Positions 5,502-32,058 of a stretch of DNA of 64,000 bases are shown piece by piece. The stretch lies in assembly GCF_051903065.1 (NCBI RefSeq), contig NZ_CP178438.1. One strand, given 5' to 3'. Under the pieces are notes generated by a model, which was given only the letters and a program-made list of their open reading frames with translations, ran no database searches and had not been told where the DNA came from. Within the stretch, counting starts at the first letter, position 1. Each line of letters starts with the position of its first letter. This DNA comes from Escherichia coli. GTDB taxonomy: Bacteria > Pseudomonadota > Gammaproteobacteria > Enterobacterales > Enterobacteriaceae. Made by a program: the position numbers and the translations under genes.

Positions 5502-5506
5502 GATGT

Positions 5507-10474: not shown

Positions 10475-10477
10475 CCG

Positions 10478-11221: not shown

Positions 11222-11320
11222 CAACCGAATGCGCCCCGCGCCAGGGCGGCACGCCGGTCAGTGTGGGTGAATCACCTGACACTGTACCGGCGTCCACCGC
11301 CCGACTTTTCTGAGGTAGTC

Positions 11321-12033: not shown

Positions 12034-12036
12034 CGC

Positions 12037-12318
12037 ATGACAGCAGAAGAAAAAAGCGTCCTGTCGCTTTTCATGATTGGGGTGCTGATTGTTGTCGGCA
12101 AGGTGCTTGCCGGTGGTGAACCCATCACCCCGCGTCTGTTTATCGGGCGCATGTTGCTCGGTGGTTTTGTCTCGATGGTTGCCGGTGTTGTTCTGGTGCA
12201 GTTTCCTGACCTGTCACTGCCTGCGGTGTGCGGCATCGGCTCCATGCTGGGTATCGCCGGTTATCAGGTGATTGAGATTGCCATTCAGCGCCGCTTTAAG
12301 GGCAGGGGGAAACCGTAA
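12037..12318 (+). CDS. Y: Holin gpY
   Basis: 93 aa with hydrophobic transmembrane segments, directly precedes endolysin. Confidence 0.85.
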   Translation: MTAEEKSVLSLFMIGVLIVVGKVLAGGEPITPRLFIGRMLLGGFVSMVAGVVLVQFPDLSLPAVCGIGSMLGIAGYQVIEIAIQRRFKGRGKP

Positions 12319-12815: not shown

Positions 12816-12829
12816 ACGGAGTAAACACC

Positions 12830-13255
12830 ATGAAGAAATTATCCCTTTCACTGATGCTGAACGTGTCGCTGGCGCTGATGCTGGCACTGTCCCTGATTTA
12901 CCCGCAGAGCGTGGCCGTCAGTTTTGTCGCCACCTGGGCGATTCTGGCGACGGTTATCTGTGTGGTTGCCTGTGGTGTCGGCGTGTATGCCACTGAGTAT
13001 GTACTGGAGCGCTACGGGCGGGAGCTGCCGCCGGAATCGATGGTCGTGAAGATTGTCACGTCGCTGTTTTTGCAGCCGGTGCTGTGGCGCAGACGGGCGG
13101 TGGGTCTGGTGGTGATGGTGGCGACGTTTATCTCGCTGGTCGCTGCCGGGTGGATTTTTACCGCACTGATTTATCTCGTGGCATCGCTGTTTTTCCGGCT
13201 GATACGTAAAGCCTGTCGTCAGCGTCTTGAGGGGCGGGAACTATGTCAAAGCTGA
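12830..13255 (+). CDS. lysA: Lysis accessory membrane protein LysA
   Basis: 141 aa, multiple hydrophobic helices, position after K. Confidence 0.8.
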   Translation: MKKLSLSLMLNVSLALMLALSLIYPQSVAVSFVATWAILATVICVVACGVGVYATEYVLERYGRELPPESMVVKIVTSLFLQPVLWRRRAVGLVVMVATFISLVAAGWIFTALIYLVASLFFRLIRKACRQRLEGRELCQS

Positions 13256-13668
13256 TGATTGTGCTGGTCGTGTTGTTATCGCTGGCGGTGACCGGTCTGT
13301 TTCTGGTGAAACACAAAAATGCCAGCCTGCGCGCCTCGCTGGACAGGGCGAACAACGTCGCCAGCGGTCAGCAGACGACCATCACCATGCTGAAAAACCA
13401 GCTTCATGTTGCCCTTACCAGGGCAGACAAAAACGAGCTGGCGCAGGTGGCACTGCGTCAGGAGCTGGAGAACGCCGCGAAGCGTGAAGCACAGCGCGAG
13501 AAAACCATCACGAGGTTACTCAATGAAAACGAAGATTTTCGCCGCTGGTACGGTGCTGACCTGCCTGATGCTGTGCGCCGGTTGCACCAGCGCCCGGCCT
13601 GCGCCGACGCCAGTGATTGTCCACAACGCCTGCCCGAAAGTGAGTCTTTGCCCGATGCCGGGCAGTGA
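13243..13668 (+). CDS. lysB: i-spanin LysB (Rz-like)
   Basis: 141 aa, N-terminal TM helix then coiled-coil-like region. Confidence 0.8.
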   Translation: MSKLMIVLVVLLSLAVTGLFLVKHKNASLRASLDRANNVASGQQTTITMLKNQLHVALTRADKNELAQVALRQELENAAKREAQREKTITRLLNENEDFRRWYGADLPDAVRRLHQRPACADASDCPQRLPESESLPDAGQ

Positions 13669-13813
13669 CCCAGAGAAGAACGGCGATTTAAGTGCCGATA
13701 TCCGGCAGCTTGAGAACGCGCTGGCACACTGTGCCAGCCAGATAAAAATGATTAAACACTGTCAGGACGAAAACGATGCTCAAACCCGACAGCCTGCGCA
13801 GGGCGCTGACTGA
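13523..13813 (+). CDS. lysC: o-spanin lipoprotein LysC (Rz1-like), embedded/overlapping in lysB in +1 frame
   Basis: MKTKIFAAGTVLTCLMLCAGC: signal peptide with lipobox LCAGC; overlaps lysB 3' end in a different frame. Confidence 0.75.
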   Translation: MKTKIFAAGTVLTCLMLCAGCTSARPAPTPVIVHNACPKVSLCPMPGSDPEKNGDLSADIRQLENALAHCASQIKMIKHCQDENDAQTRQPAQGAD

Positions 13814-14243
13814 TGCCGTCACGGTGCTGAAAACCAGTCCAGAGATGCTGCGGATATTCGTGGATAACGGGAGTATTGCTTCCACACTGGCGACGTCGCT
13901 GTCATTCGAAAAGCGTTACACGCTCAATGTGATTGTGACCGACTTTACCGGTGATTTTGACCTGCTCATCGTGCCGGTGCTGGCGTGGCTGCGGGAAAAT
14001 CAGCCCGACATCATGACCACCGACGAAGGCCAGAAAAAGGGCTTCACGTTTTATGCAGACATCAACAATGACAGCAGCTTTGATATCAGTATCAGCCTGA
14101 TGCTGACCGAGCGCACGCTGGTCAGTGAGGTTGACGGTGCGCTGCATGTGAAGAATATCCCGGAACCTCCGCCGCCGGAGCCGGTCACCCGCCCGGTGGA
14201 GCTTTATATCAATGGCGAACTGGTGAGCAAGTGGGATGAATGA
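13776..14243 (+). CDS. R: Tail completion protein gpR
   Basis: 155 aa, P2 gpR size and position. Confidence 0.85.
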   Translation: MLKPDSLRRALTDAVTVLKTSPEMLRIFVDNGSIASTLATSLSFEKRYTLNVIVTDFTGDFDLLIVPVLAWLRENQPDIMTTDEGQKKGFTFYADINNDSSFDISISLMLTERTLVSEVDGALHVKNIPEPPPPEPVTRPVELYINGELVSKWDE

Positions 14244-14694
14244 GTTTAAGCGTTTTGAAGACCGGCTGACCGGACTGATTGAATCGCTGTCACCGTCAGG
14301 GCGTCGGCGACTGAGCGCCGAACTGGCGAAACGTCTGCGGCAGAGTCAGCAGCAGCGAATTAAATTACAAAAAGGCCCGGATGGTACGCCGTATGTACCG
14401 AGAAAAAACCAGCCAGTGCGAAATAAGAAAGGCCGGATAAAGCGGGAAATGTTTGTGAAATTACGCACTAACCGGTTTATGAAAGCAACAGGTAGCGAGA
14501 GTGCGGCGGTGGTGGAGTTTGCCAGCGGAGTGCAACGAATTGCGCGAGTACATCAATTAGGGCTTAAGGATAAGCCGGGGCGTAATAGTGCTGTGGTGGA
14601 ATATCCTGTTCGTGAGTTATTTGGTTTTGACAAGGAATCTATACAATTGATAGAAAGGGAGTTATTAGTGATTCTATCGAAAGATGTTATATGA
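14236..14694 (+). CDS. S: Tail completion protein gpS (3' end AT-rich, possibly chimeric)
   Basis: 152 aa; N-terminus MNEFKRFEDRLTGL P2 S-like; last ~35 codons are AT-rich and join the downstream cargo gene. Confidence 0.8.
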   Translation: MNEFKRFEDRLTGLIESLSPSGRRRLSAELAKRLRQSQQQRIKLQKGPDGTPYVPRKNQPVRNKKGRIKREMFVKLRTNRFMKATGSESAAVVEFASGVQRIARVHQLGLKDKPGRNSAVVEYPVRELFGFDKESIQLIERELLVILSKDVI

Positions 14695-15446
14695 GACGGG
14701 TGTTTATGGATGAAAAGTTTACTATTTTGAGAAAAAGAGTAAAGCACTCTCAAAAGAAAGTTATGGATTGTATTATTGCTGACCATAATGCTGATATATG
14801 TGTGTTATGCGGGAGTCCTGACGATATTACTCGTGAGCACATTATTCCTCAGTGGGCCTTTGAGTCAAATGCTGAAAAATCTTTAATTAATAAAAAGAAT
14901 AATCAGTCAACTCATTACATTAAAGCCACTGTACCAGCATGCAGAGTGTGCAATTCTGATTTGCTGGGAGTGTTTGAGTATAACCTGAAGAAATTTCTTA
15001 CGGAAAAGAGGGGAGAGGAGTTAACAGATTATGAGTATGATTGCATCATATGGTGGTTGCAATACATGGGTTTTAAGTTGCAATTAATGGATTTGCGGAA
15101 CCGCTTTCTCAGGTATAAAGGTGGTGATTATATCCCGTTCCTTGCAAACTTCCCGGTTGCAATGTTTTGGGGGAATGTCGATACGACGCCGGGGGATGTC
15201 TTCAGGATTATACGAAAATCGCGACGCAATCTGATGTCGAAATGGAAGGATAAAAAACATAATTCTTTGATGGTTTTTGAAACATCAAACAAGAGTTTTC
15301 ATTTCTTTCATAAGGTTGATGAATTTATTTTTATTGAAATGCCTCTGGTTAAGAAGGCGTTTTTCTTCTTTTTTAATAAAGAATTTGACAGCCATGATTT
15401 AGCTCATGAGGAGTGTATGAAGATTATAGAGAAGTGCTACAACTAA
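14691..15446 (+). CDS. HNH-motif nuclease-like cargo protein between S and V (P2 orf30 position); candidate defence or accessory gene
   Basis: 251 aa; CVLCGSPDDITREHIIPQW ... PACRVCNSD (CxxC...H...CxxCN His-Me finger pattern); strongly AT-rich; start may instead be ATG at 14706. Confidence 0.6.
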   Translation: MRRVFMDEKFTILRKRVKHSQKKVMDCIIADHNADICVLCGSPDDITREHIIPQWAFESNAEKSLINKKNNQSTHYIKATVPACRVCNSDLLGVFEYNLKKFLTEKRGEELTDYEYDCIIWWLQYMGFKLQLMDLRNRFLRYKGGDYIPFLANFPVAMFWGNVDTTPGDVFRIIRKSRRNLMSKWKDKKHNSLMVFETSNKSFHFFHKVDEFIFIEMPLVKKAFFFFFNKEFDSHDLAHEECMKIIEKCYN

Positions 15447-15455
15447 TATTTATTA

Positions 15456-15465
15456 TGTTGTGTCA
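15456..15465 (+). promoter_or_regulatory. Late-promoter-associated motif TGTTGTGTCA upstream of V (P_V region), part of palindrome TGTCACAGCTGACA
   Basis: ~68 bp upstream of V start; same motif as upstream of O and FI. Confidence 0.45.
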
Positions 15466-15523
15466 CAGCTGACAGAATCCTCCATGATTGCTGCTGGTAT
15501 CGTCCAGCGGCATCCTTCCCGTT

Positions 15524-16159
15524 ATGAACACTCTCGCAAATATTCAGGAACTCGCGCGCGCACTGCGCAACATGATTCGTACCGGCCTTGTCGTCGAAAC
15601 CAACCTTAAAGCCGGTCGCTGCCGTGTGCAGACCGGCGGCATGTGCACCGACTGGCTTCAGTGGCTGACCCATCGCGCCGGACGTTCGTGCACATGGTGG
15701 GCACCTTCCGTGGGGGAGCAGGTGCTGATTCTGGCCGTGGGCGGTGAACTTGACACGGCGTTTGTTCTGCCGGGGATTTATTCCGGCGATAACCCTCCGC
15801 CGTCTGCGTCGGCGGATGCCCTGCATATCCGTTTCCCTGACGGGGCGGTGATTGAGTATGAACCCGAAACCAGTGCACTTACGGTAAGCGGAATTAAAAC
15901 GGCCAGCGTGACGGCTTCTGATTCTGTTACCGCCACGGTGCCGGTGGTCATGGTGAAAGCATCAACCCGCGTCACCCTGGACACACCGGAGGTGGTCTGC
16001 ACCAACAGGCTGATTACCGGCACGCTGGAAGTGCAGAAGGGCGGGACGATGCGCGGCAACATTGAACACACCGGCGGTGAACTCTCATCAAACGGTAAGG
16101 TACTTCATACCCATAAACACCCCGGCGACAGCGGCGGCACAACAGGGGGACCTCTATGA
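15524..16159 (+). CDS. V: Baseplate spike/assembly protein gpV
   Basis: Start at MNTLANIQELARALRNM (ATG 15524) inside ORF 15488..16159. Confidence 0.88.
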   Translation: MNTLANIQELARALRNMIRTGLVVETNLKAGRCRVQTGGMCTDWLQWLTHRAGRSCTWWAPSVGEQVLILAVGGELDTAFVLPGIYSGDNPPPSASADALHIRFPDGAVIEYEPETSALTVSGIKTASVTASDSVTATVPVVMVKASTRVTLDTPEVVCTNRLITGTLEVQKGGTMRGNIEHTGGELSSNGKVLHTHKHPGDSGGTTGGPL

Positions 16160-16503
16160 CTGCGCGTTATCTCGGAATGAATCGCAGTGATGGCCTGACT
16201 GTCACTGACCTTGAGCATATCAGCCAGAGTATCGGCGATATCCTGCGCACACCGGTCGGCTCGCGGGTGATGCGTCGTGATTACGGCTCGTTGCTGGCGT
16301 CAATGATTGACCAGCCGCAGACCCCGGCGCTTGAGTTGCAGATTAAGGTCGCCTGTTACATGGCGGTGCTGAAATGGGAACCCCGCGTCACCCTGTCATC
16401 CGTCACCACTGAGCGCAGTTTTGACGGGCGAATGACGGTCACGTTAACCGGCCAGCACAACGACACCGGCCAGCCACTTTCGTTAACCATTCCTGTGAGT
16501 TGA
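16156..16503 (+). CDS. W: Baseplate protein gpW
   Basis: 115 aa, position. Confidence 0.88.
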   Translation: MTARYLGMNRSDGLTVTDLEHISQSIGDILRTPVGSRVMRRDYGSLLASMIDQPQTPALELQIKVACYMAVLKWEPRVTLSSVTTERSFDGRMTVTLTGQHNDTGQPLSLTIPVS

Positions 16504-16507
16504 AACC

Positions 16508-17416
16508 ATGCCGATTATCGACCTGAACCAGCTACCCGCACCGGATGTGGTTGAGGAGCTGGACTTTGAAACCATTCTTGCCGAACGCAAGGCGACACTG
16601 ATTTCCCTTTACCCGGAAGACCAGCAGGAGGCGGTCGCCCGTACCCTGACGCTGGAATCTGAGCCTCTCGTCAAACTGCTGGAGGAAAATGCTTATCGTG
16701 AGCTTATCTGGCGTCAGCGTGTGAATGAGGCCGCACGGGCGGTGATGCTGGCCTGTGCTGCCGGTAATGACCTTGATGTGATTGGTGCCAATTACAACAC
16801 CACGCGCCTGATTATCACCCTGGAAGATGATTCGACCATCCCGCCGACACCGGCAGTGATGGAATCTGACACGGATTATCGTCTGCGTATTCAGCAGGCG
16901 TTTGAAGGTTTAAGCGTCGCCGGGTCGGTGGGGGCCTATCAGTATCATGGTCGCAGTGCCGACGGGCGTGTCGCGGATATTTCTGTAACCAGTCCGTCTC
17001 CGGCCTGCGTCACCATCTCTGTGCTGTCACGTGAAAATAACGGCGTCGCATCCGAAGACCTGCTGGCCGTGGTGCGTAACGCCCTTAATGGTGAGGACGT
17101 CAGACCGGTGGCCGACCGCGTGACCGTGCAGTCTGCCGCCATCGTTGAATACCAGATAAACGCCACGCTTTACCTTTACCCTGGTCCCGAAAGCGAACCC
17201 ATACGCGCTGCTGCCGTGAAAAAACTGGAAGCGTACATCACGGCACAGCACCGGCTGGGGCGCGACATCCGTCTGTCTGCCATTTATGCCGCTTTGCATG
17301 TGGAAGGCGTGCAGCGTGTCGAACTGACTGCACCGCTGGCCGACATCGTGCTCAACAGTACGCAGGCGTCTTTCTGTACCGAATACCGCGTCGTGACCGG
17401 AGGCTCGGATGAGTGA
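16508..17416 (+). CDS. J: Baseplate protein gpJ
   Basis: 302 aa, position. Confidence 0.88.
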   Translation: MPIIDLNQLPAPDVVEELDFETILAERKATLISLYPEDQQEAVARTLTLESEPLVKLLEENAYRELIWRQRVNEAARAVMLACAAGNDLDVIGANYNTTRLIITLEDDSTIPPTPAVMESDTDYRLRIQQAFEGLSVAGSVGAYQYHGRSADGRVADISVTSPSPACVTISVLSRENNGVASEDLLAVVRNALNGEDVRPVADRVTVQSAAIVEYQINATLYLYPGPESEPIRAAAVKKLEAYITAQHRLGRDIRLSAIYAALHVEGVQRVELTAPLADIVLNSTQASFCTEYRVVTGGSDE

Positions 17417-17939
17417 TTCGCGACTGCTGCCGACCGGCTCATCACCGCTTGAAGTTGCCGCCGCAAAAGCCTGTGCGGAAATTGAAAAAACGCCGGTCAG
17501 GATTCGTGAACTGTGGAACCCGGATACCTGTCCGGCAAATCTGCTGCCGTGGCTGGCGTGGGCGTTTTCGGTCGACAGGTGGGATGAAAAGTGGCCGGAA
17601 GCGACAAAACGCGCCGTTATCCGCGATGCCTATTTCATCCACTGTCATAAGGGCACTATCGGTGCAATCCGGCGTGTGGTGGAGCCGCTCGGCTATCTCA
17701 TCAACGTGACGGAGTGGTGGGAAAACAGTGACCCGCCCGGCACCTTCCGGCTTGATATTGGTGTACTGGAAAGTGGCATCACAGAGGCAATGTATCAGGA
17801 AATGGAACGGCTGATTGCTGATGCCAAACCTGCAAGCCGTCATCTTATTGGCCTGAACATTACCCGGGACATTCCCGGCTACCTGTTCGCCGGTGGTGTG
17901 GCTTACGACGGCGATGTAATTACGGTTTACCCCGGATAA
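17409..17939 (+). CDS. I: Baseplate protein gpI
   Basis: 176 aa, position. Confidence 0.85.
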   Translation: MSDSRLLPTGSSPLEVAAAKACAEIEKTPVRIRELWNPDTCPANLLPWLAWAFSVDRWDEKWPEATKRAVIRDAYFIHCHKGTIGAIRRVVEPLGYLINVTEWWENSDPPGTFRLDIGVLESGITEAMYQEMERLIADAKPASRHLIGLNITRDIPGYLFAGGVAYDGDVITVYPG

Positions 17940-17949
17940 GTGAGGAATA

Positions 17950-19827
17950 ATGAGCACAAAATTCAAAACCGTTATCACCACTGCCGGTGCAGCAAAGCTG
18001 GCAGCGGCAACCGCACCGGGAGGGCGGAAGGTCAACATTACCACGATGGCCGTCGGGGATGGCGGTGGTAAATTGCCTGTCCCGGATGCCGGACAGACCG
18101 GGCTTATCCACGAAGTCTGGCGACATACGCTGAACAAAATCAGCCAGGACAAACGAAACAGTAATTATATTATCGCAGAGCTGGTTATTCCGCCGGAGGT
18201 GGGCGGTTTCTGGATGCGTGAGCTTGGCCTGTACGATGATGCGGGAACGTTAATTGCCGTGGCGAACATGGCCGAAAGTTATAAGCCTGCCCTTGCCGAA
18301 GGCTCAGGGCGTTCGCAGACCTGCCGCATGGTCATCATCGTCAGCAGTGTGGCCTCAGTGGCGCTGACCATTGACACCACAACGGTGATGGCAACGCAGG
18401 ATTACGTTGATGACAAAATTGCAGAACATGAACAGTCACGACGTCACCCTGACGCCTCGCTGACCGCAAAAGGTTTTACTCAGTTAAGCAGTGCGACCAA
18501 CAGCACGTCTGAAACGCTCGCCGCAACACCAAAAGCTGTTAAGACGGTAATGGATGAAGCGAACAAAAAAGCGCCATTAAACAGCCCTGCACTGACCGGA
18601 ACGCCAACGACGCCAACTGCGCGACAGGGAACGAATAATACTCAGATCGCAAACACGGCTTTCGTTATGGCCGCGATTGCCGCCCTTGTAGACTCGTCGC
18701 CTGACGCACTGAATACGCTGAACGAGCTGGCGGCGGCGCTGGGCAATGACCCGAATTTTGCTACCTCCATGACTAATGCGCTTGCGGGTAAGCAACCGAA
18801 AGATGCCACTCTGACGGCGCTGGCGGGGCTTGCTACTGCGGCAGACAGCTTTCCGTATTTTACGGGGAATGATGTTGCCAGTTTGGCAACCCTGACAAAA
18901 GTCGGGCGGGATATTCTGGCTAAAGCGACCATTGCTGCCGTTATCGAATACCTCGGTTTGCAGGAAACGGTAAACAGGGCCAGGAACGCGGTGCAAAAGA
19001 ATGGCGATACCTTGTCCGGCGGGATTACTTTTGAAAACGACTCAATCCTTGCCTGGATTCGAAATACTGACTGGGCGAAGATTGGATTTAAAAATGATGC
19101 CGATGGTGACGCTGATTCATACATGTGGTTTGAAACGGGGGATAACGGCAATGAATATTTCAAATGGAGAAGCCGCCAGAGTACCACAACAAAAGACCTG
19201 ATGACGCTGAAATGGGATGCACTAAATATTCTTGTTAATGCCGTCATTAATGGCTGTCTTGGAGTTGGTACGACGAATGCACTAGGTGGTAGCTCTATTG
19301 TCCTTGGTGATAATGATACCGGATTTAAACAGAATGGAGACGGTATTCTTGATGTTTATGCTAACAGTCAGCGTGTATTCCGTTTTCAGAATGGAGTGGC
19401 TATTGCTTTTAAAAATATTCAGGCAGGGGATAGTAAAAAGTTCTCGCTATCCAGCTCTAACACATCCACGAAGAATATTATCTTTAATTTATGGGGTGCT
19501 TCCAACCGTCCAGTGGTTGCAGAGTTAGGCGATGAGTCCGGATGGCATTTCTATAGCCAGCGAAATACAGATAACTCGGTAATATTTGCTGTTAACGGTC
19601 AGATGCAACCCAGCAACTGGGGGAATTTTGATTCCCGCTATGTGAAAGATGTTCGCCTGGGTACGCGAGTTGTTCAATTGATGGCGCGAGGTGGTCGTTA
19701 TGAAAAAGCCGGACACACGATTACCGGATTAAGAATCATTGGTGAAGTAGATGGCGATGATGAGGCCATCTTCAGGCCGATACAAAAATACATCAATGGC
19801 ACATGGTATAACGTTGCGCAGGTGTAA
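17950..19827 (+). CDS. H: Tail fibre protein gpH
   Basis: 625 aa; MSTKFKTVITTAGAAKLAAATAPG N-terminus as recalled for P2 H; C-terminal part AT-richer. Confidence 0.88.
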   Translation: MSTKFKTVITTAGAAKLAAATAPGGRKVNITTMAVGDGGGKLPVPDAGQTGLIHEVWRHTLNKISQDKRNSNYIIAELVIPPEVGGFWMRELGLYDDAGTLIAVANMAESYKPALAEGSGRSQTCRMVIIVSSVASVALTIDTTTVMATQDYVDDKIAEHEQSRRHPDASLTAKGFTQLSSATNSTSETLAATPKAVKTVMDEANKKAPLNSPALTGTPTTPTARQGTNNTQIANTAFVMAAIAALVDSSPDALNTLNELAAALGNDPNFATSMTNALAGKQPKDATLTALAGLATAADSFPYFTGNDVASLATLTKVGRDILAKATIAAVIEYLGLQETVNRARNAVQKNGDTLSGGITFENDSILAWIRNTDWAKIGFKNDADGDADSYMWFETGDNGNEYFKWRSRQSTTTKDLMTLKWDALNILVNAVINGCLGVGTTNALGGSSIVLGDNDTGFKQNGDGILDVYANSQRVFRFQNGVAIAFKNIQAGDSKKFSLSSSNTSTKNIIFNLWGASNRPVVAELGDESGWHFYSQRNTDNSVIFAVNGQMQPSNWGNFDSRYVKDVRLGTRVVQLMARGGRYEKAGHTITGLRIIGEVDGDDEAIFRPIQKYINGTWYNVAQV

Positions 19828-19830
19828 GTA

Positions 19831-20358
19831 ATGCAGCATTTAAAGAACATTAAGTCAGGTAATCCAAAAACAAAAGAGCAATATCAGCTAACAAAGAATT
19901 TTGATGTTATCTGGTTATGGTCCGAAGACGGAAAAAACTGGTATGAGGAAGTAAGTAATTTTCAGCCAGACACAATAAAGATTGTTTACGATGAAAATAA
20001 TATTATTGTCGCCATCACCAGAGATGCTTCAACGCTTAATCCTGAAGGTTTTAGCGTCGTTGAGGTTCCTGATATTACTGCCAACCGGCGTGCTGATGAC
20101 TCAGGTAAATGGATGTTTAAGGATGGTGCCGTGATTAAGCGGATTTATACGGCAGACGAACAGCAGAAACTGGCGGAATTACATAAGGCAGCTTTGCTTT
20201 CCGAAGCTGAATCCGTGATTTTGCCGCTGGAGCGCGCGGTCAGGCTGAATATGGCAACAGATGAGGAGCGTAGTCGACTGGAGGCATGGGAACGCTATAG
20301 TGTTCTGGTCAGTCGTGTGGATCCTGCAAATCCTGAATGGCCGGAAATGCCGCAATAA
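19831..20358 (+). CDS. G: Tail fibre assembly chaperone gpG
   Basis: 175 aa [21 protein letters not shown]2 G-like. Confidence 0.88.
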
Positions 20359-20457
20359 GTTGTATGAGCTCTGGTGTGAGCTTACATATCTATGGCACAG
20401 AGTAAAGCCTAATCTGACAGTCCGTTCTGTGCCAGTAGCGGACGTTTGAATAAATTA

Positions 20458-20486
20458 TTGACTAACTAAAGTTTTTGGCATTAAAT
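20458..20486 (+). promoter_or_regulatory. Putative sigma70 promoter for the HEPN-motif cargo gene
   Basis: TTGACT, 17-bp spacer, TTAAAT; ~35 bp upstream of GGAG RBS and ATG 20527. Confidence 0.35.
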
Positions 20487-20526
20487 TTTCAATTAAAATG
20501 TTCGCATTGATTTATTGGAGTAAATA

Positions 20527-21480
20527 ATGGATATACATGCAAAAAGAGTTGGCAGTCCACTTTATAAAATTATTATGTACTTAAATAAGTATGAAGAAGA
20601 TACACTGGAAGACATAAAACTTCAGTTTCTTTTAAAAAATTTAAAAACTCATTTCAAGAAACTGTTTTATATGATTACTTACATTAATAAAATTCAAAAA
20701 GATGCTGAGTTCATCAGAAAACATGATGCAACATCAATTGTCAGCATTAGTGCTATTGAGTATTGCTATTATAAAATCAGCACGATATGGGATATTGCAT
20801 ATCAGATAGCTGATAAATTAATTTTCCCAACTAAAAAAAATGGCAATAAATATGATTACCTTGAAAATCATTTCCAGCAATATGCACAGGAATTTCCAGA
20901 TTTGAATTTAAAATGGTATAAGGACTTTAATAAAATAAGAAATAAGATAGTTCATGGAGGGATAACAGTAAATCCTTATTATGTCAACGATGATAATATT
21001 AAAACAAAGATTTGTTTCCAAGCATATGACTCTGATCTAAACGATCTGATTCAACCTCATATGATGTATTCAAATAGATTCAATAACAATATTAATTTTG
21101 CTGATTACTATTTTACCTTTTATACTCATCTTCTCTATTCATATCTTTTTGATTTTTTTGATTTTGTACTTCTTGAGCTAAACAAAGATAAATCACATGA
21201 TTTAGACAATCTTATTCTTGATGATATACCGCACAAATTGTTTGGTGCTCATCATGAAACATGGTTGTTATCTGATGTTGATCAATTTATGAAAATTACA
21301 AGAGAAATGATTTCCCTACAAATAGCTGATGGTTGTTTAAATAAAATTGAGAAAATACCCTCAAGTGATATTGAACATTTTTTTAACAACTTTCCATTTT
21401 GTCTTATGACAAAGGTTAGCTCCGGAGATTGGGTATTGGTTGAGGATAAAGCGGCTGAAACAAAGTCATCGGACACTTAA
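20527..21480 (+). CDS. HEPN-motif (Rx4H) protein, Abi-like candidate, cargo in the G-FI (Z/fun) hotspot
   Basis: 317 aa; very AT-rich, Lys/Asn/Tyr/Phe-rich; motif RNKIVHGG (R-x4-H); own promoter-like elements. Confidence 0.55.
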   Translation: MDIHAKRVGSPLYKIIMYLNKYEEDTLEDIKLQFLLKNLKTHFKKLFYMITYINKIQKDAEFIRKHDATSIVSISAIEYCYYKISTIWDIAYQIADKLIFPTKKNGNKYDYLENHFQQYAQEFPDLNLKWYKDFNKIRNKIVHGGITVNPYYVNDDNIKTKICFQAYDSDLNDLIQPHMMYSNRFNNNINFADYYFTFYTHLLYSYLFDFFDFVLLELNKDKSHDLDNLILDDIPHKLFGAHHETWLLSDVDQFMKITREMISLQIADGCLNKIEKIPSSDIEHFFNNFPFCLMTKVSSGDWVLVEDKAAETKSSDT

Positions 21481-21774
21481 ATTTTTTTTGTGCCAAAGTC
21501 TACTCCTCGCTCGTCACAGGCTTTGGCATTCGTTTCAACAACCAAGTGATAGCATATATTGTGACCTGCACCCCGTTGATTCATACATCCTCGATGTAAG
21601 CAATCCCTTGAGAACGTCCACTCCTCGCTCTTAGCAGATCACACGGTTCTTCAAACGATCCGCTTCGTACCAGAAACGAACTTTTATCTCAAATTTGAAC
21701 CTTTTAGTGGATGACGACGTTTGTGTCTTCAAGTAGTCTTAAAAGCATGCGGATAGTGCATAGGAAAAGCAGAA

Positions 21775-22611
21775 GTGATCGATGACCCACTACCAGAAAA
21801 CTGGCAAGACCTCCAGACAGGGGTCCAACGTATATTCCGTAATGTTGGCTTGTTTGCAGAAGTCGAGGTCGATTTAGAAACCCCGCGTGGCTCGGTGAAT
21901 GTGGATGTTCTTGCTACAGATGTTAGGAGCGTGGACAAAATCAGATACATTGTGGAATGCAAAAACTGGGGTAGTTCTATACCACAGACGGTGGTCCATT
22001 CGTTCACCACGGTAATGCATGAAACCGGGGCTAATATTGGATTTATTATTTCAAAGCACGGGCTTCAGCAGGGTGCTAAACAGTACACTCAAAACACCAA
22101 TATTATTGGGATGACATACCTTGAGTTCCAAAAAAGGTATTTTGAGGCTTGGTGGAATAGATACTTTTGTCCACGTATCGGTGATGCTGCAGACGAACCG
22201 CTTCAGTACGTCGAACCAATCAACTCTAAACGAGATCGCGAATACGCCAAGCTAAGCCTTCAAGCACAAGAGAAGTTCGATCAGTTAAGGCAAGAGAAAG
22301 GTGTATCAGTAGTGGTTCTCTCTATGCTCAATTACAAGTTTATGTCGAAAGCATTAAACACTGGTAACTTGCTGGAAGTCCCAAATAATCTGGATGATTT
22401 TAAGAACAGAGTTCTCTCCCGAATATGTCCTCACATTGAATGGCATTGTGATACGTACAGAGAGCTGCTAGAGCTCATCTTGCAATACTTATCAGTCACA
22501 AAAGCAGAGTTTGATGCAATATTTGGTCGGGCCATCTTTGAACCGCCAAGTAGTATCACGGGGGTTACGGCTGAAGGTCCCCCTTTAGACGATGGTATTT
22601 ATCATCATTAG
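21775..22611 (+). CDS. PD-(D/E)xK restriction-endonuclease-like (Mrr_cat-like) protein, cargo in the G-FI hotspot
   Basis: 278 aa, GTG start; N-terminal VNVDVLATD ... YIVECKNW (D ... E-x-K nuclease signature). Confidence 0.55.
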   Translation: MIDDPLPENWQDLQTGVQRIFRNVGLFAEVEVDLETPRGSVNVDVLATDVRSVDKIRYIVECKNWGSSIPQTVVHSFTTVMHETGANIGFIISKHGLQQGAKQYTQNTNIIGMTYLEFQKRYFEAWWNRYFCPRIGDAADEPLQYVEPINSKRDREYAKLSLQAQEKFDQLRQEKGVSVVVLSMLNYKFMSKALNTGNLLEVPNNLDDFKNRVLSRICPHIEWHCDTYRELLELILQYLSVTKAEFDAIFGRAIFEPPSSITGVTAEGPPLDDGIYHH

Positions 22612-22732
22612 TTTCATACATAAACCATGCTCCCGCATGTCCGCATTTCGCTCAAAGCAGACTGTCAGATTTGATAGCGTTTGGGCTATGTAAACTGTCA
22701 GTCGGAAAATGAGTGTGTGCAAATCAGGACAG

Positions 22733-22760
22733 GCGGGCGAATTGCCCGCATTTTCTTTAT
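22733..22760 (+). terminator. Rho-independent terminator after the G-FI cargo genes
   Basis: GCGGGC-GAATT-GCCCGC followed by TTTTCTTTAT. Confidence 0.6.
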
Positions 22761-22762
22761 CT

Positions 22763-22772
22763 GTTGTTTCAT
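22763..22772 (+). promoter_or_regulatory. Late-promoter-associated motif TGTTGTTTCA upstream of FI (P_F region)
   Basis: ~92 bp upstream of FI start; third copy of the TGTTGT(G/T)TCA motif. Confidence 0.45.
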
Positions 22773-22854
22773 CCACTGACCAGCCAGGTCAAATGGCGTC
22801 TCATGCACTGCCCAACAGAAAATAGTTGCACCCATTAACCACGGAGTTAAACGG

Positions 22855-24045
22855 ATGAGCGACTATCATCATGGCGTGCAGGTGCTGGAGATTAACGACG
22901 GCACCCGCGTCATTTCCACCGTATCCACTGCCATTGTCGGCATGGTCTGCACGGCCAGCGATGCGGATGCGGAAATCTTCCCCCTCAATAAACCGGTGCT
23001 GATTACCAATGTGCAGAGCGCAATTGCAAAGGCCGGTAAAAAAGGCACGCTGGCGGCATCGTTGCAGGCCATCGCCGACCAGTCAAAACCGGTCACAGTT
23101 GTCGTGCGCGTGGAAGACGGCACCGGCGATGACGAAGAAACGAAACTCGCGCAGACCGTTTCCAATATCATCGGCACCACCGACGAAAACGGTCAGTACA
23201 CCGGACTGAAAGCCCTGCTGGCGGCGGAGTCGGTAACCGGTGTTAAACCGCGTATTCTCGGCGTGCCGGGACTGGACACCAAAGAGGTGGCTGTTGCACT
23301 GGCATCAGTCTGTCAGAAGCTGCGCGCTTTCGGGTATATCAGCGCATGGGGCTGTAAAACCATTTCCGAGGTGAAAGCCTACCGTCAGAATTTCAGCCAG
23401 CGTGAGCTGATGGTCATCTGGCCGGATTTCCTCGCATGGGATACGGTCAGCAGCACCACCGCCACCGCGTATGCCACCGCCCGTGCGCTGGGTCTGCGCG
23501 CTAAAATCGACCAGGAGCAGGGCTGGCATAAAACGCTGTCCAATGTCGGGGTAAACGGTGTTACCGGCATCAGTGCTTCTGTATTCTGGGATTTGCAGGA
23601 GTCCGGCACCGATGCTGACCTGCTTAACGAGTCAGGCGTCACTACGCTGATTCGTCGCGACGGTTTCCGATTCTGGGGTAACCGTACCTGCTCTGATGAC
23701 CCGCTGTTCCTCTTTGAAAACTACACCCGCACCGCGCAGGTGCTGGCCGACACGATGGCTGAGGCGCACATGTGGGCGGTGGACAAGCCCATCACCGCAA
23801 CGCTGATTCGCGACATCGTTGACGGCATCAATGCCAAATTCCGTGAGCTGAAAACAAACGGCTATATCGTGGATGCGACCTGCTGGTTCAGCGAAGAATC
23901 CAACGATGCGGAAACCCTCAAGGCCGGAAAACTGTATATCGACTACGACTATACACCGGTGCCTCCTCTCGAAAACCTGACCCTGCGCCAGCGTATTACC
24001 GATAAATACCTGGCAAATCTGGTCACCTCGGTTAACAGCAATTAA
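22855..24045 (+). CDS. FI: Tail sheath protein FI
   Basis: 396 aa, P2 FI-like. Confidence 0.9.
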   Translation: MSDYHHGVQVLEINDGTRVISTVSTAIVGMVCTASDADAEIFPLNKPVLITNVQSAIAKAGKKGTLAASLQAIADQSKPVTVVVRVEDGTGDDEETKLAQTVSNIIGTTDENGQYTGLKALLAAESVTGVKPRILGVPGLDTKEVAVALASVCQKLRAFGYISAWGCKTISEVKAYRQNFSQRELMVIWPDFLAWDTVSSTTATAYATARALGLRAKIDQEQGWHKTLSNVGVNGVTGISASVFWDLQESGTDADLLNESGVTTLIRRDGFRFWGNRTCSDDPLFLFENYTRTAQVLADTMAEAHMWAVDKPITATLIRDIVDGINAKFRELKTNGYIVDATCWFSEESNDAETLKAGKLYIDYDYTPVPPLENLTLRQRITDKYLANLVTSVNSN

Positions 24046-24057
24046 GGAGCCTGACCG

Positions 24058-24576
24058 ATGGCAATGCCGCGCAAACTCAAGTTAATGAACGTCTTTCTGA
24101 ACGGCTACAGCTATCAGGGCGTTGCAAAGTCCGTCACGCTGCCAAAACTGACCCGTAAGCTCGAAAACTATCGCGGTGCGGGGATGAACGGCAGCGCACC
24201 GGTAGACCTCGGCCTTGATGATGATGCGCTGTCAATGGAGTGGTCGCTCGGGGGCTTCCCGGATTCGGTTATCTGGGAGCTTTACGCCGCAACCGGCGTG
24301 GATGCCGTGCCGATTCGTTTTGCAGGCTCTTACCAGCGCGACGATACCGGCGAAACGGTGGCCGTCGAAGTGGTCATGCGTGGACGTCAGAAAGAAATCG
24401 ACACCGGCGAGGGCAAACAGGGAGAAGACACCGAGTCGAAAATCTCCGTGGTCTGCACCTATTTCCGGCTGACGATGGACGGTAAGGAGCTGGTCGAAAT
24501 CGACACCATCAACATGATTGAGAAGGTGAACGGCGTCGACCGGCTGGAGCAACACCGCCGCAATATCGGCCTGTGA
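24058..24576 (+). CDS. FII: Tail tube protein FII
   Basis: 172 aa, follows sheath. Confidence 0.9.
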   Translation: MAMPRKLKLMNVFLNGYSYQGVAKSVTLPKLTRKLENYRGAGMNGSAPVDLGLDDDALSMEWSLGGFPDSVIWELYAATGVDAVPIRFAGSYQRDDTGETVAVEVVMRGRQKEIDTGEGKQGEDTESKISVVCTYFRLTMDGKELVEIDTINMIEKVNGVDRLEQHRRNIGL

Positions 24577-24632
24577 TTTTCATCCGGTCAGCCTGGCTGA
24601 CCGGTTAACCCCGATTCAGAAGAGAGAAAACC

Positions 24633-24908
24633 ATGAACAAAGAAAATGTGATTACCCTGGACAATCCGGTCAAGCGTGGTGAGCAGGTTATCGAACAGGT
24701 CACGCTGATGAAACCCAATGCCGGGACGCTGCGCGGTGTCAGTCTGGCTGCGGTCGCGAACTCTGAAGTCGATGCACTGATTAAGGTGCTGCCGCGCATG
24801 ACGGCACCGATGCTGACCGAGCAGGAAGTCGCCGCGCTGGAACTGCCTGACCTTGTGGCGCTGGCCGGTAAGGTGGTCGGTTTTTTGTCGCCGAACTCGG
24901 TGCAGTGA
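24633..24908 (+). CDS. E: Tail assembly chaperone gpE
   Basis: 91 aa; ends just after slippery TTTTTTG. Confidence 0.85.
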   Translation: MNKENVITLDNPVKRGEQVIEQVTLMKPNAGTLRGVSLAAVANSEVDALIKVLPRMTAPMLTEQEVAALELPDLVALAGKVVGFLSPNSVQ

Positions 24909-25060
24909 CGTTTCCGAAAAATCTCTCGGTCGATGACCTGATGGCAGATGTGGCTGTGATATTTCACTGGCCGCCATCAGAACTGTATCCCATGAGCCTG
25001 ACCGAACTCATCACATGGCGCGAAAAGGCGCTCCGGCGAAGCGGAAACACGAATGAGTAA
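24633..25060 (+). CDS. E': Tail assembly chaperone E+E' made by programmed -1 frameshift at TTTTTTG (24881-24887)
   Basis: -1 frame stays open from the slippery site to TAA at 25058-25060, giving ~142 aa; overlaps the T start. Confidence 0.7.
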
Positions 25061-27500
25061 CAATGTAAAATTACAGGTATTGCTCAGGGCTGTTGACCAG
25101 GCATCCCGCCCGTTTAAATCCATCCGTACAGCGAGCAAGTCGCTGTCGGGGGATATCCGGGAAACACAAAAATCACTGCGCGAGCTGAACGGTCAGGCGT
25201 TCCGTATTGAGGGATTTCGCAAGACCAGTGCGCAGCTCGCCGTGACTGGTCATGCACTTGAAAAGGCTCGGCAGGAAGCCGAAGCCCTTGCCACACAGTT
25301 TAAAAACACCGAACGTCCGACCCGTGCTCAGGCGAAAGTGCTGGAATCCGCAAAGCGTGCGGCGGAGGACTTACAGGCGAAATATAACCGCCTGACGGAT
25401 TCCGTTAAGCGCCAGCAGCGGGAACTGGCCGCTGTGGGAATTAATACCCGCAATCTTGCACATGATGAGCAGGGGCTGAAAAACCGTATCAGTGAAACCA
25501 CCGCACAGCTTAACCGTCAGCGCGACGCACTGGCGCGTGTCAGTGCACAACAGGCAAAACTTAACGCAGTAAAACAGCGTTATCAGGCCGGAAAGGAACT
25601 GGCAGGAAATATGGCCTCAGTGGGCGCTGCCGGTGTGGGGATTGCTGCTGCGGGAACGATGGCCGGTGTTAAGCTGCTGATGCCCGGTTATGAGTTTGCG
25701 CAGAAAAACTCAGAATTGCAGGCTGTGCTCGGTGTGGCAAAAGACTCCGCCGAAATGGCCGCATTACGCAAACAGGCGCGCCAGCTCGGCGACAATACCG
25801 CCGCCTCGGCAGATGATGCAGCCGGTGCGCAGATTATTATTGCGAAAGCCGGTGGGGATGTTGATGCCATTCAGGCGGCAACGCCGGTCACGCTGAACAT
25901 GGCGCTGGCGAACCGCCGCACGATGGAAGAAAACGCCGCCCTGCTGATGGGGATGAAATCCGCCTTTCAGCTTTCAAACGATAAGGTCGCTCATATCGGG
26001 GATGTTCTCTCCATGACGATGAACAAAACCGCCGCCGATTTTGACGGCATGAGCGATGCGCTGACCTATGCCGCACCTGTGGCAAAAAATGCCGGTGTCA
26101 GCATTGAAGAAACCGCCGCAATGGTCGGGGCGCTGCATGATGCAAAAATTACAGGCTCAATGGCGGGGACGGGAAGCCGTGCCGTGTTAAGTCGCCTGCA
26201 GGCACCAACGGGAAAAGCATGGGATGCACTCAAAGAGCTTGGCGTGAAAACCTCAGACAGCAAGGGAAACACCCGGCCAATATTTACCATTCTGAAAGAA
26301 ATGCAGGCCAGTTTTGAGAAAAACCGGCTCGGTACTGCCCAGCAGGCTGAATACATGAAAACTATTTTCGGGGAGGAGGCCAGCTCAGCCGCCGCCGTGC
26401 TGATGACTGCCGCCTCAACCGGAAAGCTGGACAAACTGACCGCTGCGTTTAAAGCCTCAGACGGGAAGACTGCCGAGCTGGTAAATATCATGCAGGACAA
26501 CCTCGGCGGTGACTTTAAGGAGTTTCAGTCCGCTTATGAGGCGGTAGGGACAGACCTGTTTGACCAGCAGGAAGGCGCACTGCGTAAGCTCACACAGACG
26601 GCCACAAAGTATGTGTTAAAACTCGACGGCTGGATACAGAAAAACAAATCACTGGCGTCAACCATTGGCATCATTGCCGGTGGCGCGCTGGCGCTTACTG
26701 GCATCATCGGTGCCATTGGTCTTGTAGCCTGGCCGGTTATCACCGGCATCAATGCCATCATCGCTGCAGCAGGCGCAATGGGGGCAATTTTCACGACGGT
26801 TGGCAGTGCCGTTATGACGGCCATCGGGGCGATTAGCTGGCCGGTAGTGGCCGTGGTGGCCGCCATTGTCGCCGGAGCGTTACTTATCCGTAAATACTGG
26901 GAGCCTGTCAGCGCATTCTTTGGCGGTGTGGTTGAAGGGCTGAAAGCGGCATTTGCGCCGGTGGGGGAGCTGTTCACGCCACTGAAACCGGTGTTTGACT
27001 GGCTGGGCGAAAAGTTACAGGCCGCGTGGCAGTGGTTTAAAAACCTGATTGCCCCGGTTAAAGCCACCCAGGACACCCTGAACCGTTGCCGTGACACGGG
27101 CGTCATGTTCGGGCAGGCACTGGCTGACGCGCTGATGCTGCCGCTTAATGCGTTCAACAAACTGCGCAGCGGTATTGACTGGGTACTGGAAAAACTCGGT
27201 GTTATCAACAAAGAGTCAGACACACTTGACCAGACCGCCGCCAGAACTCAAGCCGCCACGTATGGCAGCGTTGGTTATATTCCGGCGACCAGCTCTTATG
27301 CAGGCTATCAGGCTTATCAGCCGGTTACGGCACCGGCTGGCCGCTCTTATGTAGACCAGAGTAAAAACGAATATCACATTAACCTGACGGGTGGTTCTGC
27401 GCCGGGAACACAGCTTGACCGCCAGTTACAGGATGCGCTCGAAAAATACGAGCGGGATAAACGTGCGCGCGCCCGTGCCAGCATGATGCATGACGGTTAA
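25053..27500 (+). CDS. T: Tail tape measure protein gpT
   Basis: 815 aa, coiled-coil N-terminus and Gly/Ala-rich hydrophobic middle region. Confidence 0.9.
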   Translation: MSNNVKLQVLLRAVDQASRPFKSIRTASKSLSGDIRETQKSLRELNGQAFRIEGFRKTSAQLAVTGHALEKARQEAEALATQFKNTERPTRAQAKVLESAKRAAEDLQAKYNRLTDSVKRQQRELAAVGINTRNLAHDEQGLKNRISETTAQLNRQRDALARVSAQQAKLNAVKQRYQAGKELAGNMASVGAAGVGIAAAGTMAGVKLLMPGYEFAQKNSELQAVLGVAKDSAEMAALRKQARQLGDNTAASADDAAGAQIIIAKAGGDVDAIQAATPVTLNMALANRRTMEENAALLMGMKSAFQLSNDKVAHIGDVLSMTMNKTAADFDGMSDALTYAAPVAKNAGVSIEETAAMVGALHDAKITGSMAGTGSRAVLSRLQAPTGKAWDALKELGVKTSDSKGNTRPIFTILKEMQASFEKNRLGTAQQAEYMKTIFGEEASSAAAVLMTAASTGKLDKLTAAFKASDGKTAELVNIMQDNLGGDFKEFQSAYEAVGTDLFDQQEGALRKLTQTATKYVLKLDGWIQKNKSLASTIGIIAGGALALTGIIGAIGLVAWPVITGINAIIAAAGAMGAIFTTVGSAVMTAIGAISWPVVAVVAAIVAGALLIRKYWEPVSAFFGGVVEGLKAAFAPVGELFTPLKPVFDWLGEKLQAAWQWFKNLIAPVKATQDTLNRCRDTGVMFGQALADALMLPLNAFNKLRSGIDWVLEKLGVINKESDTLDQTAARTQAATYGSVGYIPATSSYAGYQAYQPVTAPAGRSYVDQSKNEYHINLTGGSAPGTQLDRQLQDALEKYERDKRARARASMMHDG

Positions 27501-27514
27501 GGAGGTGACGAAAA

Positions 27515-27994
27515 ATGATGCTCGCGTTAGGTATGTTTGTTTTTATGCGCCAGACGCTGCCACACCAGACCATGCAGCGTGAATCAGATTATCGCTGGCC
27601 GTCAAATTCCCGTATCGGTAAACGGGATGCCTACCAGTTTCTCGGTGTGGGTGAGGAAAACATGACGCTGGCCGGTGTGCTTTATCCCGAACTGACCGGC
27701 GGCAAGCTGACGATGACCACGCTCAGGCTGATGGCAGAGGAAGGCCGGGCGTGGCCGTTGCTGGATGGCACCGGCATGATTTACGGCATGTATGTCATCA
27801 GCAGGGTGAATGAAACAGGGAGTATTTTCTTTGCAGACGGCACACCCCGGAAAATTGATTTTACGCTGTCGCTCACCCGCGTTGATGAATCACTGGCCGC
27901 GCTTTATGGCGATATCGGTAAACAGGCGGAATCGCTCATCGGTAAGGCCGGTAGTCTGGCGACCAGATTCACGGGGATGACGGAGGCGGGATAA
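27515..27994 (+). CDS. U: Tail protein gpU
   Basis: 159 aa, position. Confidence 0.88.
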   Translation: MMLALGMFVFMRQTLPHQTMQRESDYRWPSNSRIGKRDAYQFLGVGEENMTLAGVLYPELTGGKLTMTTLRLMAEEGRAWPLLDGTGMIYGMYVISRVNETGSIFFADGTPRKIDFTLSLTRVDESLAALYGDIGKQAESLIGKAGSLATRFTGMTEAG

Positions 27995-29157
27995 TGCTGG
28001 ATGCGCTGACATTTGATGCAGGCAGTACGCTGACGCCGGATTACATGCTGATGCTCGACAGCAGGGATATTACCGGTAATATCAGCGACCGTCTGATGAG
28101 CATGACCCTGACGGATAACCGGGGCTTTGAGGCTGACCAGCTTGATATTGAACTGAACGATGCCGACGGGCAGGTCGGGCTGCCGGTTCGTGGCGCTGTC
28201 CTGACGGTGTATATCGGCTGGAAAGGTTTTGCTCTGGTATGCAAAGGGAAATTTACCGTTGATGAGGTAGAACACCGGGGCGCGCCGGATGTGGTCACCA
28301 TCCGCGCCAGGAGTGCAGATTTTCGCGGGACGCTCAATTCCCGCCGTGAAGGCTCCTGGCATGACACCACGCTCGGTGCGATTGTTGAGGCGATAGCCTC
28401 CCGTAACAGGCTGGAAGCCAGTGTCGCTCCGTCACTGGCCGGAATTAAAATCCCGCACATCGACCAGTCACAGGAGTCTGATGCAAAATTCCTGACCCGC
28501 CTTGCTGAACGCAACGGCGGTGAGGTGTCGGTAAAAATGGGAAAACTGCTGTTTCTCAAAGCGGGGCAGGGGGTGACGGCCAGCGGTAAAAAAATCCCGC
28601 AGATTACCATCACCCGCAGCGACGGCGACCGTCATCATTTTGCGATTGCTGACCGTGGAGCCTACACCGGCGTAACGGCAAAGTGGTTACACACCAAAGA
28701 CCCGAAGCCGCAAAAGCAGAAGGTAAAACTGAAACGCAAAAAGAAAGAAAAACACCTGCGCGCACTGGAGCACCCGAAAGCAAAACCGGTCAGGCAGAAG
28801 AAAGCGCCAAAAGTACCGGAAGCGCGCGAAGGTGAATACATGGCCGGTGAGGCTGACAACGTTTTTGCCCTGACCACGGTATATGCCACGAAAGCACAGG
28901 CCATGCGTGCCGCTCAGGCGAAGTGGGATAAACTGCAACGGGGCGTTGCGGAGTTCTCCATCAGCCTGGCTACCGGTCGTGCTGATATTTACACGGAAAC
29001 ACCGGTTAAAGTATCAGGCTTTAAGCGCGTCATAGACGAGCAGGGCTGGACAATCACTAAGGTGACACATTTTCTGAATAATAGCGGCTTCACGACGTCC
29101 TTAGAGCTTGAGGTCAGGCTTTCTGATGTGGAGTACGAAACAGAAGATGATGAGTGA
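27994..29157 (+). CDS. D: Tail protein gpD (late gene control D)
   Basis: 387 aa, position. Confidence 0.88.
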   Translation: MLDALTFDAGSTLTPDYMLMLDSRDITGNISDRLMSMTLTDNRGFEADQLDIELNDADGQVGLPVRGAVLTVYIGWKGFALVCKGKFTVDEVEHRGAPDVVTIRARSADFRGTLNSRREGSWHDTTLGAIVEAIASRNRLEASVAPSLAGIKIPHIDQSQESDAKFLTRLAERNGGEVSVKMGKLLFLKAGQGVTASGKKIPQITITRSDGDRHHFAIADRGAYTGVTAKWLHTKDPKPQKQKVKLKRKKKEKHLRALEHPKAKPVRQKKAPKVPEAREGEYMAGEADNVFALTTVYATKAQAMRAAQAKWDKLQRGVAEFSISLATGRADIYTETPVKVSGFKRVIDEQGWTITKVTHFLNNSGFTTSLELEVRLSDVEYETEDDE

Positions 29158-29238
29158 TGTTTTTATTTTATCTGTTTGTTTTATAAGGATAAATTAACTA
29201 AAATGGCACCATCAACAAAACCGGAAGAGGTGCTCGCG

Positions 29239-29457
29239 ATGTTTCATTGTCCTTTATGCCAGCATGCCGCACATGCGCGTACAAGCCGCTATATCACTGA
29301 CACGACAAAAGAGCGTTATCACCAGTGTCAGAACGTGAATTGCAGCGCCACATTCATCACTTATGAGTCGGTACAGCGATACATCGTGAAGCCGGGAGAA
29401 GTCCACGCCGTAAGACCGCACCCGTTGCCGTCAGGGCAGCAAATTATGTGGATGTAA
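29239..29457 (+). CDS. ogr: Late transcription activator Ogr (zinc finger)
   Basis: 72 aa from MFHCPLCQH; Cys pairs CPLC ... CQNVNC; ORF track's longer upstream start not used. Confidence 0.85.
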   Translation: MFHCPLCQHAAHARTSRYITDTTKERYHQCQNVNCSATFITYESVQRYIVKPGEVHAVRPHPLPSGQQIMWM

Positions 29458-29465
29458 TTACAAAC

Positions 29466-29496
29466 AGGAAGCCCCTCAGTCGAGGGGCTTTTTTGT
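29466..29496 (+). terminator. Rho-independent terminator after ogr
   Basis: GAAGCCCCTC-AGTC-GAGGGGCTTTTTTG. Confidence 0.75.
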
Positions 29497-29695
29497 CGAT
29501 GTGGTCAATGTGTGGACGTGACCAGAAATAAATCCTTTTATTTCATGTGATTAGATATCAAAAAATGTCACCAATAACTGACATTGCGGTGTTTCTCCAG
29601 ATGTGGCCCATCTGAGGCCGTGTTGGTGCGCAGCTCGAAGGCTACGTCGAGTCTGTTTTGGCAGTCACCTTAAAGTATAGATAGCTGACAAAAAA

Positions 29696-29738
29696 GGCTC
29701 TCGTGCTAAAAAAGGCCCCACTTTCGTGGAGCCTTTAT
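29696..29738 (-). terminator. Rho-independent terminator of pflB
   Basis: Minus-strand hairpin GGCTCCACGAAAGTGGGGCC followed by TTTTTT, just 3' of the pflB stop. Confidence 0.6.
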
Positions 29739-29775
29739 TGTACGCTTTTTACTGTACGATTTCAGTCAAATCTAA

Positions 29776-32058
<2,283 letters not shown>

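Follow-up and report, generated by a model that had tools for sequence, protein, structure and literature searches.

The interval between ogr and pflB in this Escherichia coli genome, positions 29458-29775, is the attR of a prophage of the P2-like (Peduovirus) type. This prophage appears to have been inserted by site-specific recombination through a tyrosine integrase at the attachment site of phages PhiD145 and PhiD160, which we identify by map position; we put the probability of this reading at about 0.9. Positions throughout are those of the window, the stretch of 64,000 nucleotides of E. coli DNA that was analysed. The boundary of the prophage can be pinned to 13 bp, and what had been described as an intergenic insertion becomes an insertion into the first codons of pflA. 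Since the crossover falls within the first five codons of that gene, the phage must provide pflA with a new start codon. At this junction, an important gene of anaerobic metabolism has its 5' end replaced by a phage.

The right prophage junction

The features of the junction and its surroundings are listed in Table 1. The phage side ends in gene D, ogr and an intrinsic terminator, an order that is the same in phage 11W; the counterpart of ogr in matching genomes is named ogrK by RefSeq. The terminator region folds with a minimum free energy of -22.9 kcal/mol (z = -5.3), and none of 200 shuffled sequences was as stable. It folds as a hairpin on the minus strand as well (z = -4.4). The first-pass annotation had seen the ogr terminator followed by a pflB terminator and by pflB itself, and folding and ORF analysis found all of these to be present.

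Table 1. Coordinates of the prophage, the attachment core and the flanking host features in the window.
Feature	Coordinates	Strand	Evidence or remarks
P2-like (Peduovirus) prophage, right-hand 29.6 kb	1..29569	+	ORF map; RefSeq N66, E308; isolated P2-like phages
Gene D, late control / tail protein; final late gene ahead of ogr	27994..29157	+	
ogr, late-gene activator, 72 aa zinc-finger	29239..29457	+	Pfam Ogr_Delta, E=1e-21
Intrinsic terminator 3' of ogr	29464..29496	+	Stem 29469-29490, T-run 29491-29496
Phage P arm of attR, 73 bp between ogr terminator and core	29497..29569	.	
Orphaned pflA 5' end, MSVIGDIF then stop	29558..29584	-	K-12 pflA alignment
att core ACCAATAACTGAC, 13 bp	29570..29582	.	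Identical in attR, attB (K-12), attL (N66) and attP (phage 11W)
Complete native pflB-pflA spacer, 191 bp	29585..29775	-	One mismatch to K-12
pflB terminator	Stem 29711-29736, U-tract 29705-29710	-	z = -3.1
pflB, pyruvate formate-lyase, 760 aa, intact	29776..32058	-	

Between the ogr terminator and the core, the P arm of the window aligns with the attP of Escherichia phage 11W without any differences. It contains two direct repeats 11 bp apart, TGTGGTCA (29500-29507) and TGTGGACG (29511-29518), and beyond them a stretch rich in A and T. The repeats are putative arm-type sites for Int, and both match tgTGGaCa, the arm-site consensus described for P2-type integrases (PMC3448106). Two putative sites of the P' arm, tATGGACg and tATGGACa, which overlap the end of int, match the same consensus. 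The IHF consensus WATCARNNNNTTR was absent from the P arm when one mismatch was permitted. No tRNA or tmRNA gene was detected in the whole window, in agreement with the earlier remark that no tRNA was recognizable here, and a tRNA or tmRNA gene as the integration target was rejected for this reason.

The window from 29160 to 29582 is 98-99% identical to the ogr-attP region of isolated P2-like phages, and 19 phage records contain int together with the attP arm, with a query coverage of 80% or more. On the other side, host sequence is collinear with K-12 from codon 7 of pflA outward, from 29564 to the window end at 64000, through focA, ycaO, serC, aroA, rpsA, msbA and mukFEB up to aspC. Identity to K-12 is 98.7% over 33,264 bp (29564-62824). 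Matches of this extent to phage DNA on one side and to K-12 on the other exclude a chance resemblance. The sole break in collinearity with K-12 is the absence of about 160 bp between gloC and aspC, at 62814-62824 of the window.

The attachment core and the 5' end of pflA

Alignment of the right junction to prophage-free K-12, which the first-pass annotation had proposed as a check, defines the 13-bp core, and the core lies inside the bracket of 29497-29690 within which attR had been expected. Imperfect identity extends beyond the core, across 29564-29586; the point of strand exchange is somewhere within the core itself. A four-way alignment relates the attachment sites to each other: attP (phage 11W) consists of the left arm of attR, the core and the right arm of attL (N66), and attB (K-12) consists of the left arm of attL, the core and the right arm of attR. 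In the free phage, the order along attP is ogr, terminator, two Int arm sites, an A/T-rich spacer, the 13-bp core and about 85 bp more, followed by two further Int arm sites and the end of int.

Read as its reverse complement, GTCAGTTATTGGT, the core is the G of the pflA ATG followed by codons 2-5 (TCA GTT ATT GGT), which places the prophage in the 5' end of pflA and not in the spacer. In K-12, pflA (950340-951080 in the current MG1655 record; 741 nt, 246 aa) lies 191 bp downstream of pflB, directly adjacent to it as stated in the first-pass annotation. In the window, the native ATG (29584-29582, minus strand) and codons 2-5 now read into phage DNA. The native Shine-Dalgarno sequence of pflA, GGAG (reverse complement of 29595-29598), is within the spacer and stays with pflB, and any native pflA promoter in the spacer is now directed into the prophage.

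The earlier placement of the prophage in the pflB-pflA interval was correct in that the prophage separates pflB from the body of pflA. Insertion into the non-coding spacer itself, with both genes untouched, would be in accord with the gene order pflB - prophage - pflA and with the position of the core inside the bracket drawn earlier. The alignments refute it, however: the entire spacer, the pflA ATG and codons 2-5 are all found on the pflB side, so that the crossover must lie within the pflA reading frame. Moreover, in attL the native ATG has become AAG, and the 798-nt pflA of RefSeq starts in phage DNA. We therefore give an insertion that spares both genes practically no credence, and we continue with the crossover in the first codons of pflA.

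The left end in related genomes

The window opens, at position 1, with the ATG of replication gene A, and the left junction of the source genome is beyond the window; some 4.2 kb, comprising B, cox, C, int and attL, consequently lies outside it. Several RefSeq records likewise begin at P2 gene A. This suggests that assemblies have been rotated to start at a "replication" gene, in which case the prophage would be split across the record origin and int would be found at the far end of the record.

Gene order from gene A to ogr is the same in the window and in the annotated prophage of E. coli N66. The closest intact relative carrying the same cargo genes is E308, whose left end reads int-pflA-ycaK. 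Gene A and the cargo are most similar in E. coli PSJ-12 (99.3%), which was set aside as a model for the left end in favor of E308, its prophage being scrambled. In PSJ-12 (NZ_AP027622.1, 1267500-1281000), truncated terminase and tail-X genes abut a fragment of cox, as if two P2-like prophages had recombined.

In the relatives, int encodes the Pfam domains Int_N and Phage_integrase and adjoins pflA, both in Rahnella and in N66, E308, J-8, E. albertii and K. pneumoniae. For the last five, this answers the question that the first-pass annotation had raised of whether pflA would be found beyond the left end of the prophage. A search of 5426 complete E. coli genomes identified an empty site in 5021, attR in 402 and an int-pflA attL in 404. 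Genomes with an empty site and genomes with attL add up to 5425, the full number of genomes with any match, and the site is occupied in about 7% of the collection. The best match to the junction in this collection was 99.7%.

The position of pflA beyond int in the relatives, together with the near equality of the attL and attR counts, indicates simple insertion rather than rearrangement. It could be argued that in this particular genome the prophage has been rearranged or has recombined, for example from two P2-like prophages, so that the junction marks one of its ends and the left end is not beside pflA. The left end does lie beyond the window, and the scrambled prophage of PSJ-12 is very similar in gene A and cargo. 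Nevertheless, the attR and attL counts agree and, with the empty sites, account for every genome, a normal attL with int beside pflA is found in E308, the relative that comes next in similarity, and the order of genes in the window is that of N66. A rearranged prophage is thus very improbable here, and simple insertion is the reading that we retain.

A phage-encoded leader on PflA

At attL of N66, the stop codon of int is followed by 31 nt and then by a phage ATG and 19 codons that are in frame with codon 2 of pflA; the native ATG of pflA has become AAG. RefSeq accordingly annotates pflA in the lysogens N66, E308 and J-8 as a gene of 798 nt (265 aa). The fused E. coli PflA reads MSNLTNCNTTENTATAGATK-SVIGRIH..., and the predicted leader-specific peptide of the 265-aa protein is SNLTNCNTTENTATAGATK. 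In the free phage, the leader ATG opens a frame of 27 codons across the attP core. Residues 21-265 of the fused protein score 522 bits against the PflA equivalog model, compared to 525 bits for K-12 PflA, and the leader is purely an N-terminal addition ahead of the conserved GRIHSxES motif. Insertion of the prophage into the first pflA codons explains why PflA proteins of both 246 and 265 aa are present in RefSeq. One 265-aa form occurs on at least 1000 contigs.

The int-leader-pflA junction was also observed outside E. coli, in Escherichia albertii, in Klebsiella pneumoniae (three loci) and in Rahnella ecdela. In K. pneumoniae the arrangement was found in 487 index blocks, and the Klebsiella leader is identical to that of E. 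coli. The int gene of Rahnella is 76% identical, and Rahnella has kept the native pflA ATG behind a GGGGGA motif. Unlike Rahnella, E. coli has lost the native ATG, so that the upstream phage ATG is its only canonical start. When the 60-aa N-terminus was used as a protein query, all the matches were short fragments, among which the leaders of Citrobacter and others came to light. The leader frame is open at every locus examined in E. coli, E. albertii, Klebsiella, Citrobacter, Rahnella and Salmonella, with the caveat of an ascertainment bias, since any protein taken from gene calls is necessarily in frame. The leader sequences themselves diverge (MSNLTNCNTTENTATAGATK, MSNLTDCISTESTTESGGHM, MSNLTHCKDKENTAITAPVK and MSNLNDCIKKENTAAAAEKK). 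Part of the leader (ATGAGTAAYTTAAC...) may be conserved on account of binding sites for Cox or IHF in the P' arm and not through a coding constraint.

A scan of the genome collection with Int gave 3 loci only, because a single protein query reaches only close relatives. A 513-bp contig of low coverage in a Clostridia assembly, Terrisporobacter mayombei, encodes the first 141 residues of the integrase with 99% identity; it is most likely enterobacterial DNA that has contaminated the assembly.

A probable prophage remnant in Salmonella

Two Salmonella enterica contigs (L019, 2430-3060, and L027, 4396-5080) carry a gene for a sopD-family effector (319 aa, PF11047) between pflB and pflA. The spacer before pflA in these genomes aligns with the 3' end of a PhiD145-type int, with gaps that shift the reading frame, and with the P' arm. 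In both genomes PflA has a 20-codon leader of the phage type, and AAG stands in place of the native ATG. A 258-aa Salmonella PflA was considered as a case of a shorter leader and rejected; its DNA has the same 20-codon frame, with another start annotated. From these alignments, the Salmonella locus has the look of a P2-like prophage that has decayed in this att site, and the sequence suggests that a phage of this kind left the sopD island behind as a fossil. The gene order in strain LT2 is pflA, a putative integrase, sopD2 and pflB.

Proposed mechanism and expression of the fused pflA

We propose that Int mediates recombination between a P2-type attP and the 13-bp attB core formed by the first five codons of pflA. 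Integration leaves the native pflA promoter region, the ribosome-binding site, the ATG and 4 codons at attR, beside pflB and within the window. The remainder of pflA is moved about 33 kb away to attL, with the native ATG changed to AAG, and a 265-aa PflA results from the new start codon and the 19 in-frame codons that the P' arm of the phage contributes. The junction, the core, the relations among the attachment sites, the in-frame fusion and its prevalence are shown by the alignments and the genome counts. The start codon of pflA is replaced by that of the phage, and its promoter is probably replaced as well. We infer that the 265-aa fusion protein is made and active; the support, indirect though consistent, comes from its prevalence, the conserved open frame and the retention of that frame after the decay of int in Salmonella.

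The source of transcription was considered by searching for terminators and promoters. No plus-strand terminator-like site was found between Pc, C, int and the displaced pflA in N66, or between int and the displaced pflA in Rahnella. As nothing like a terminator separates int from the new start codon, transcription is most simply explained by read-through out of the lysogeny operon, and the fused pflA would be transcribed from the C-int (Pc) operon of the prophage. When the DNA ahead of the fused gene was scanned for sigma-70 promoters in E. coli, Salmonella and Rahnella, the results were at or below the level expected by chance; one sigma-70-like site matching at 9 of 12 positions, TTAACC-16-CATAAT, is present in the 3' end of the N66 int and is given no weight. 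The Shine-Dalgarno sequence ahead of the phage ATG is weak.

Integration might instead inactivate pflA, either because the leader is untranslated or because the fusion is inactive, and lysogens would then be without PflA-dependent glycyl-radical activity. Such an outcome would fit the physical removal of the native start codon and promoter region, as well as the weak Shine-Dalgarno sequence and the lack of any convincing predicted promoter. Several observations argue against it and make it unlikely. All lysogens examined, different genera included, have pflA as an open frame of full length, and the site is occupied in a substantial number of complete E. coli genomes (see above). The leader frame is open despite the divergence of the leader sequences. 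In addition, the two Salmonella genomes keep the leader-pflA frame intact even though int is only a frameshifted remnant, as would be expected only if there were selection for the frame.

A functional fusion leads to a broader reading, in which integration rewires pflA: the extended PflA would come under the control of the C-int (Pc) lysogeny operon, activation of all PflA-dependent glycyl-radical enzymes would be tied to lysogeny, and the Salmonella sopD island would be a fossil of the same kind of phage. Taken as a whole, this combination is speculative, and we hold it to be rather unlikely. If it is true, glycyl-radical enzyme activation would change upon induction or excision of the prophage, and a leader-bearing PflA could become the permanent form of the host. 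The interest that remains is modest and concerns this possible rewiring of pflA regulation and the Salmonella fossil; no long-standing question is opened by them.

Additional genes carried by the prophage

Two cargo gene pairs of low GC content were noted in the prophage. The first (33% GC; window 2511-5181) lies between gene A and the portal gene, an interval that is a known defense hotspot of P2. Its first gene encodes a 555-aa ATPase with AAA_15/AAA_21 domains that matches the PADLOC models NsnB (2e-51) and AriA (3e-28); the product of the second gene, 333 aa, had no match in Pfam or PADLOC. With a query coverage of 80% or more, only 5 of the 5426 complete E. coli genomes have this pair. 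The second pair (36-38% GC; window 20527-22611) is found in the tail region, between the tail-fiber assembly and sheath genes. One of its products, of 317 aa, had no match, and the other, of 278 aa, contains an Mrr_cat restriction-endonuclease domain (E=4e-11).

Comparison with known attachment sites

The attachment site proved to be one that is already known, that of the PhiD145 type, and the junction is an ordinary one. The site of PhiD145 and PhiD160 was reportedly the subject of work by Karlsson et al. in 2006 and Mandali et al. in 2010. Its position in MG1655 is given as 950293 by Nilsson and Haggard-Ljungquist (PMC3448106, Table 1). That table must use an older numbering of MG1655, since it places ileY at 2783812, about 1978 lower than in the current record (2785762-2785837). 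The current record contains an IS1 in crl at 257908-258675. We take this IS1 to be one of two insertions that were added in the newer version of the sequence. With the offset of about 777 bp that this IS1 would cause at the pflA locus, 950293 becomes approximately 951070, which corresponds to pflA codons 3-4 and to window position 29574, inside the core; the assignment to PhiD145 (sequence records AM158280, AM159077 and AJ298559) is thus made by position, from a published coordinate and from the insertions presumed to separate the two versions.

The system described here resembles PhiD145 and PhiD160 in its P2-type integrase, in its tgTGGaCa arm repeats and in an attB that falls within the 13-bp core, and in these respects no difference from them was detected. 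A Pectobacterium prophage, PhiECA29, shares the same site (PMC3448106), consistent with the use of this site in several genera that we found. The PhiD145 integrase serves in the pIT5 plasmids for genome integration (PMC12765450). A full-text search of the literature outside the primary PhiD145 papers found no mention of an effect on pflA or of a replacement of its N-terminus.

The attP and attB of P2 (locI and secondary sites) are organized in the same way, with ogr, a terminator, a P arm with two Int sites and the core in succession, and with a P' arm whose two Int sites overlap the 3' end of int. The arm consensus is the same, and the P2 core is likewise short and partly imperfect. The core sequence and the chromosomal target differ. 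P2-type integrases mostly integrate between genes and rarely within genes other than those for tRNAs (PMC3448106), whereas the target here is the 5' end of a coding gene.

In its effect on the target, the system resembles the dusA-associated integrases and islands (Farrugia et al. 2015, PMC4482086), which insert into a conserved housekeeping gene at its 5' end. There, as here, sequence of the element replaces the 5' end of a target gene that apparently is still functional. The integrase family and the target are different, and the segment replaced in dusA includes a structural beta-strand, whereas in pflA the replacement is confined to the Met, and the protein gains 19 residues ahead of the conserved fold. 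Phage 21 and e14, which integrate in icd, rebuild the 3' end of their target gene, and tRNA-targeting integrases such as that of 186 belong to the same group. These elements also carry a substitute for the gene end that they displace. However, they restore a nearly identical 3' end, whereas at pflA it is the 5' end that is exchanged, with the start codon, the ribosome-binding site and, probably, the promoter swapped for non-homologous phage sequence.
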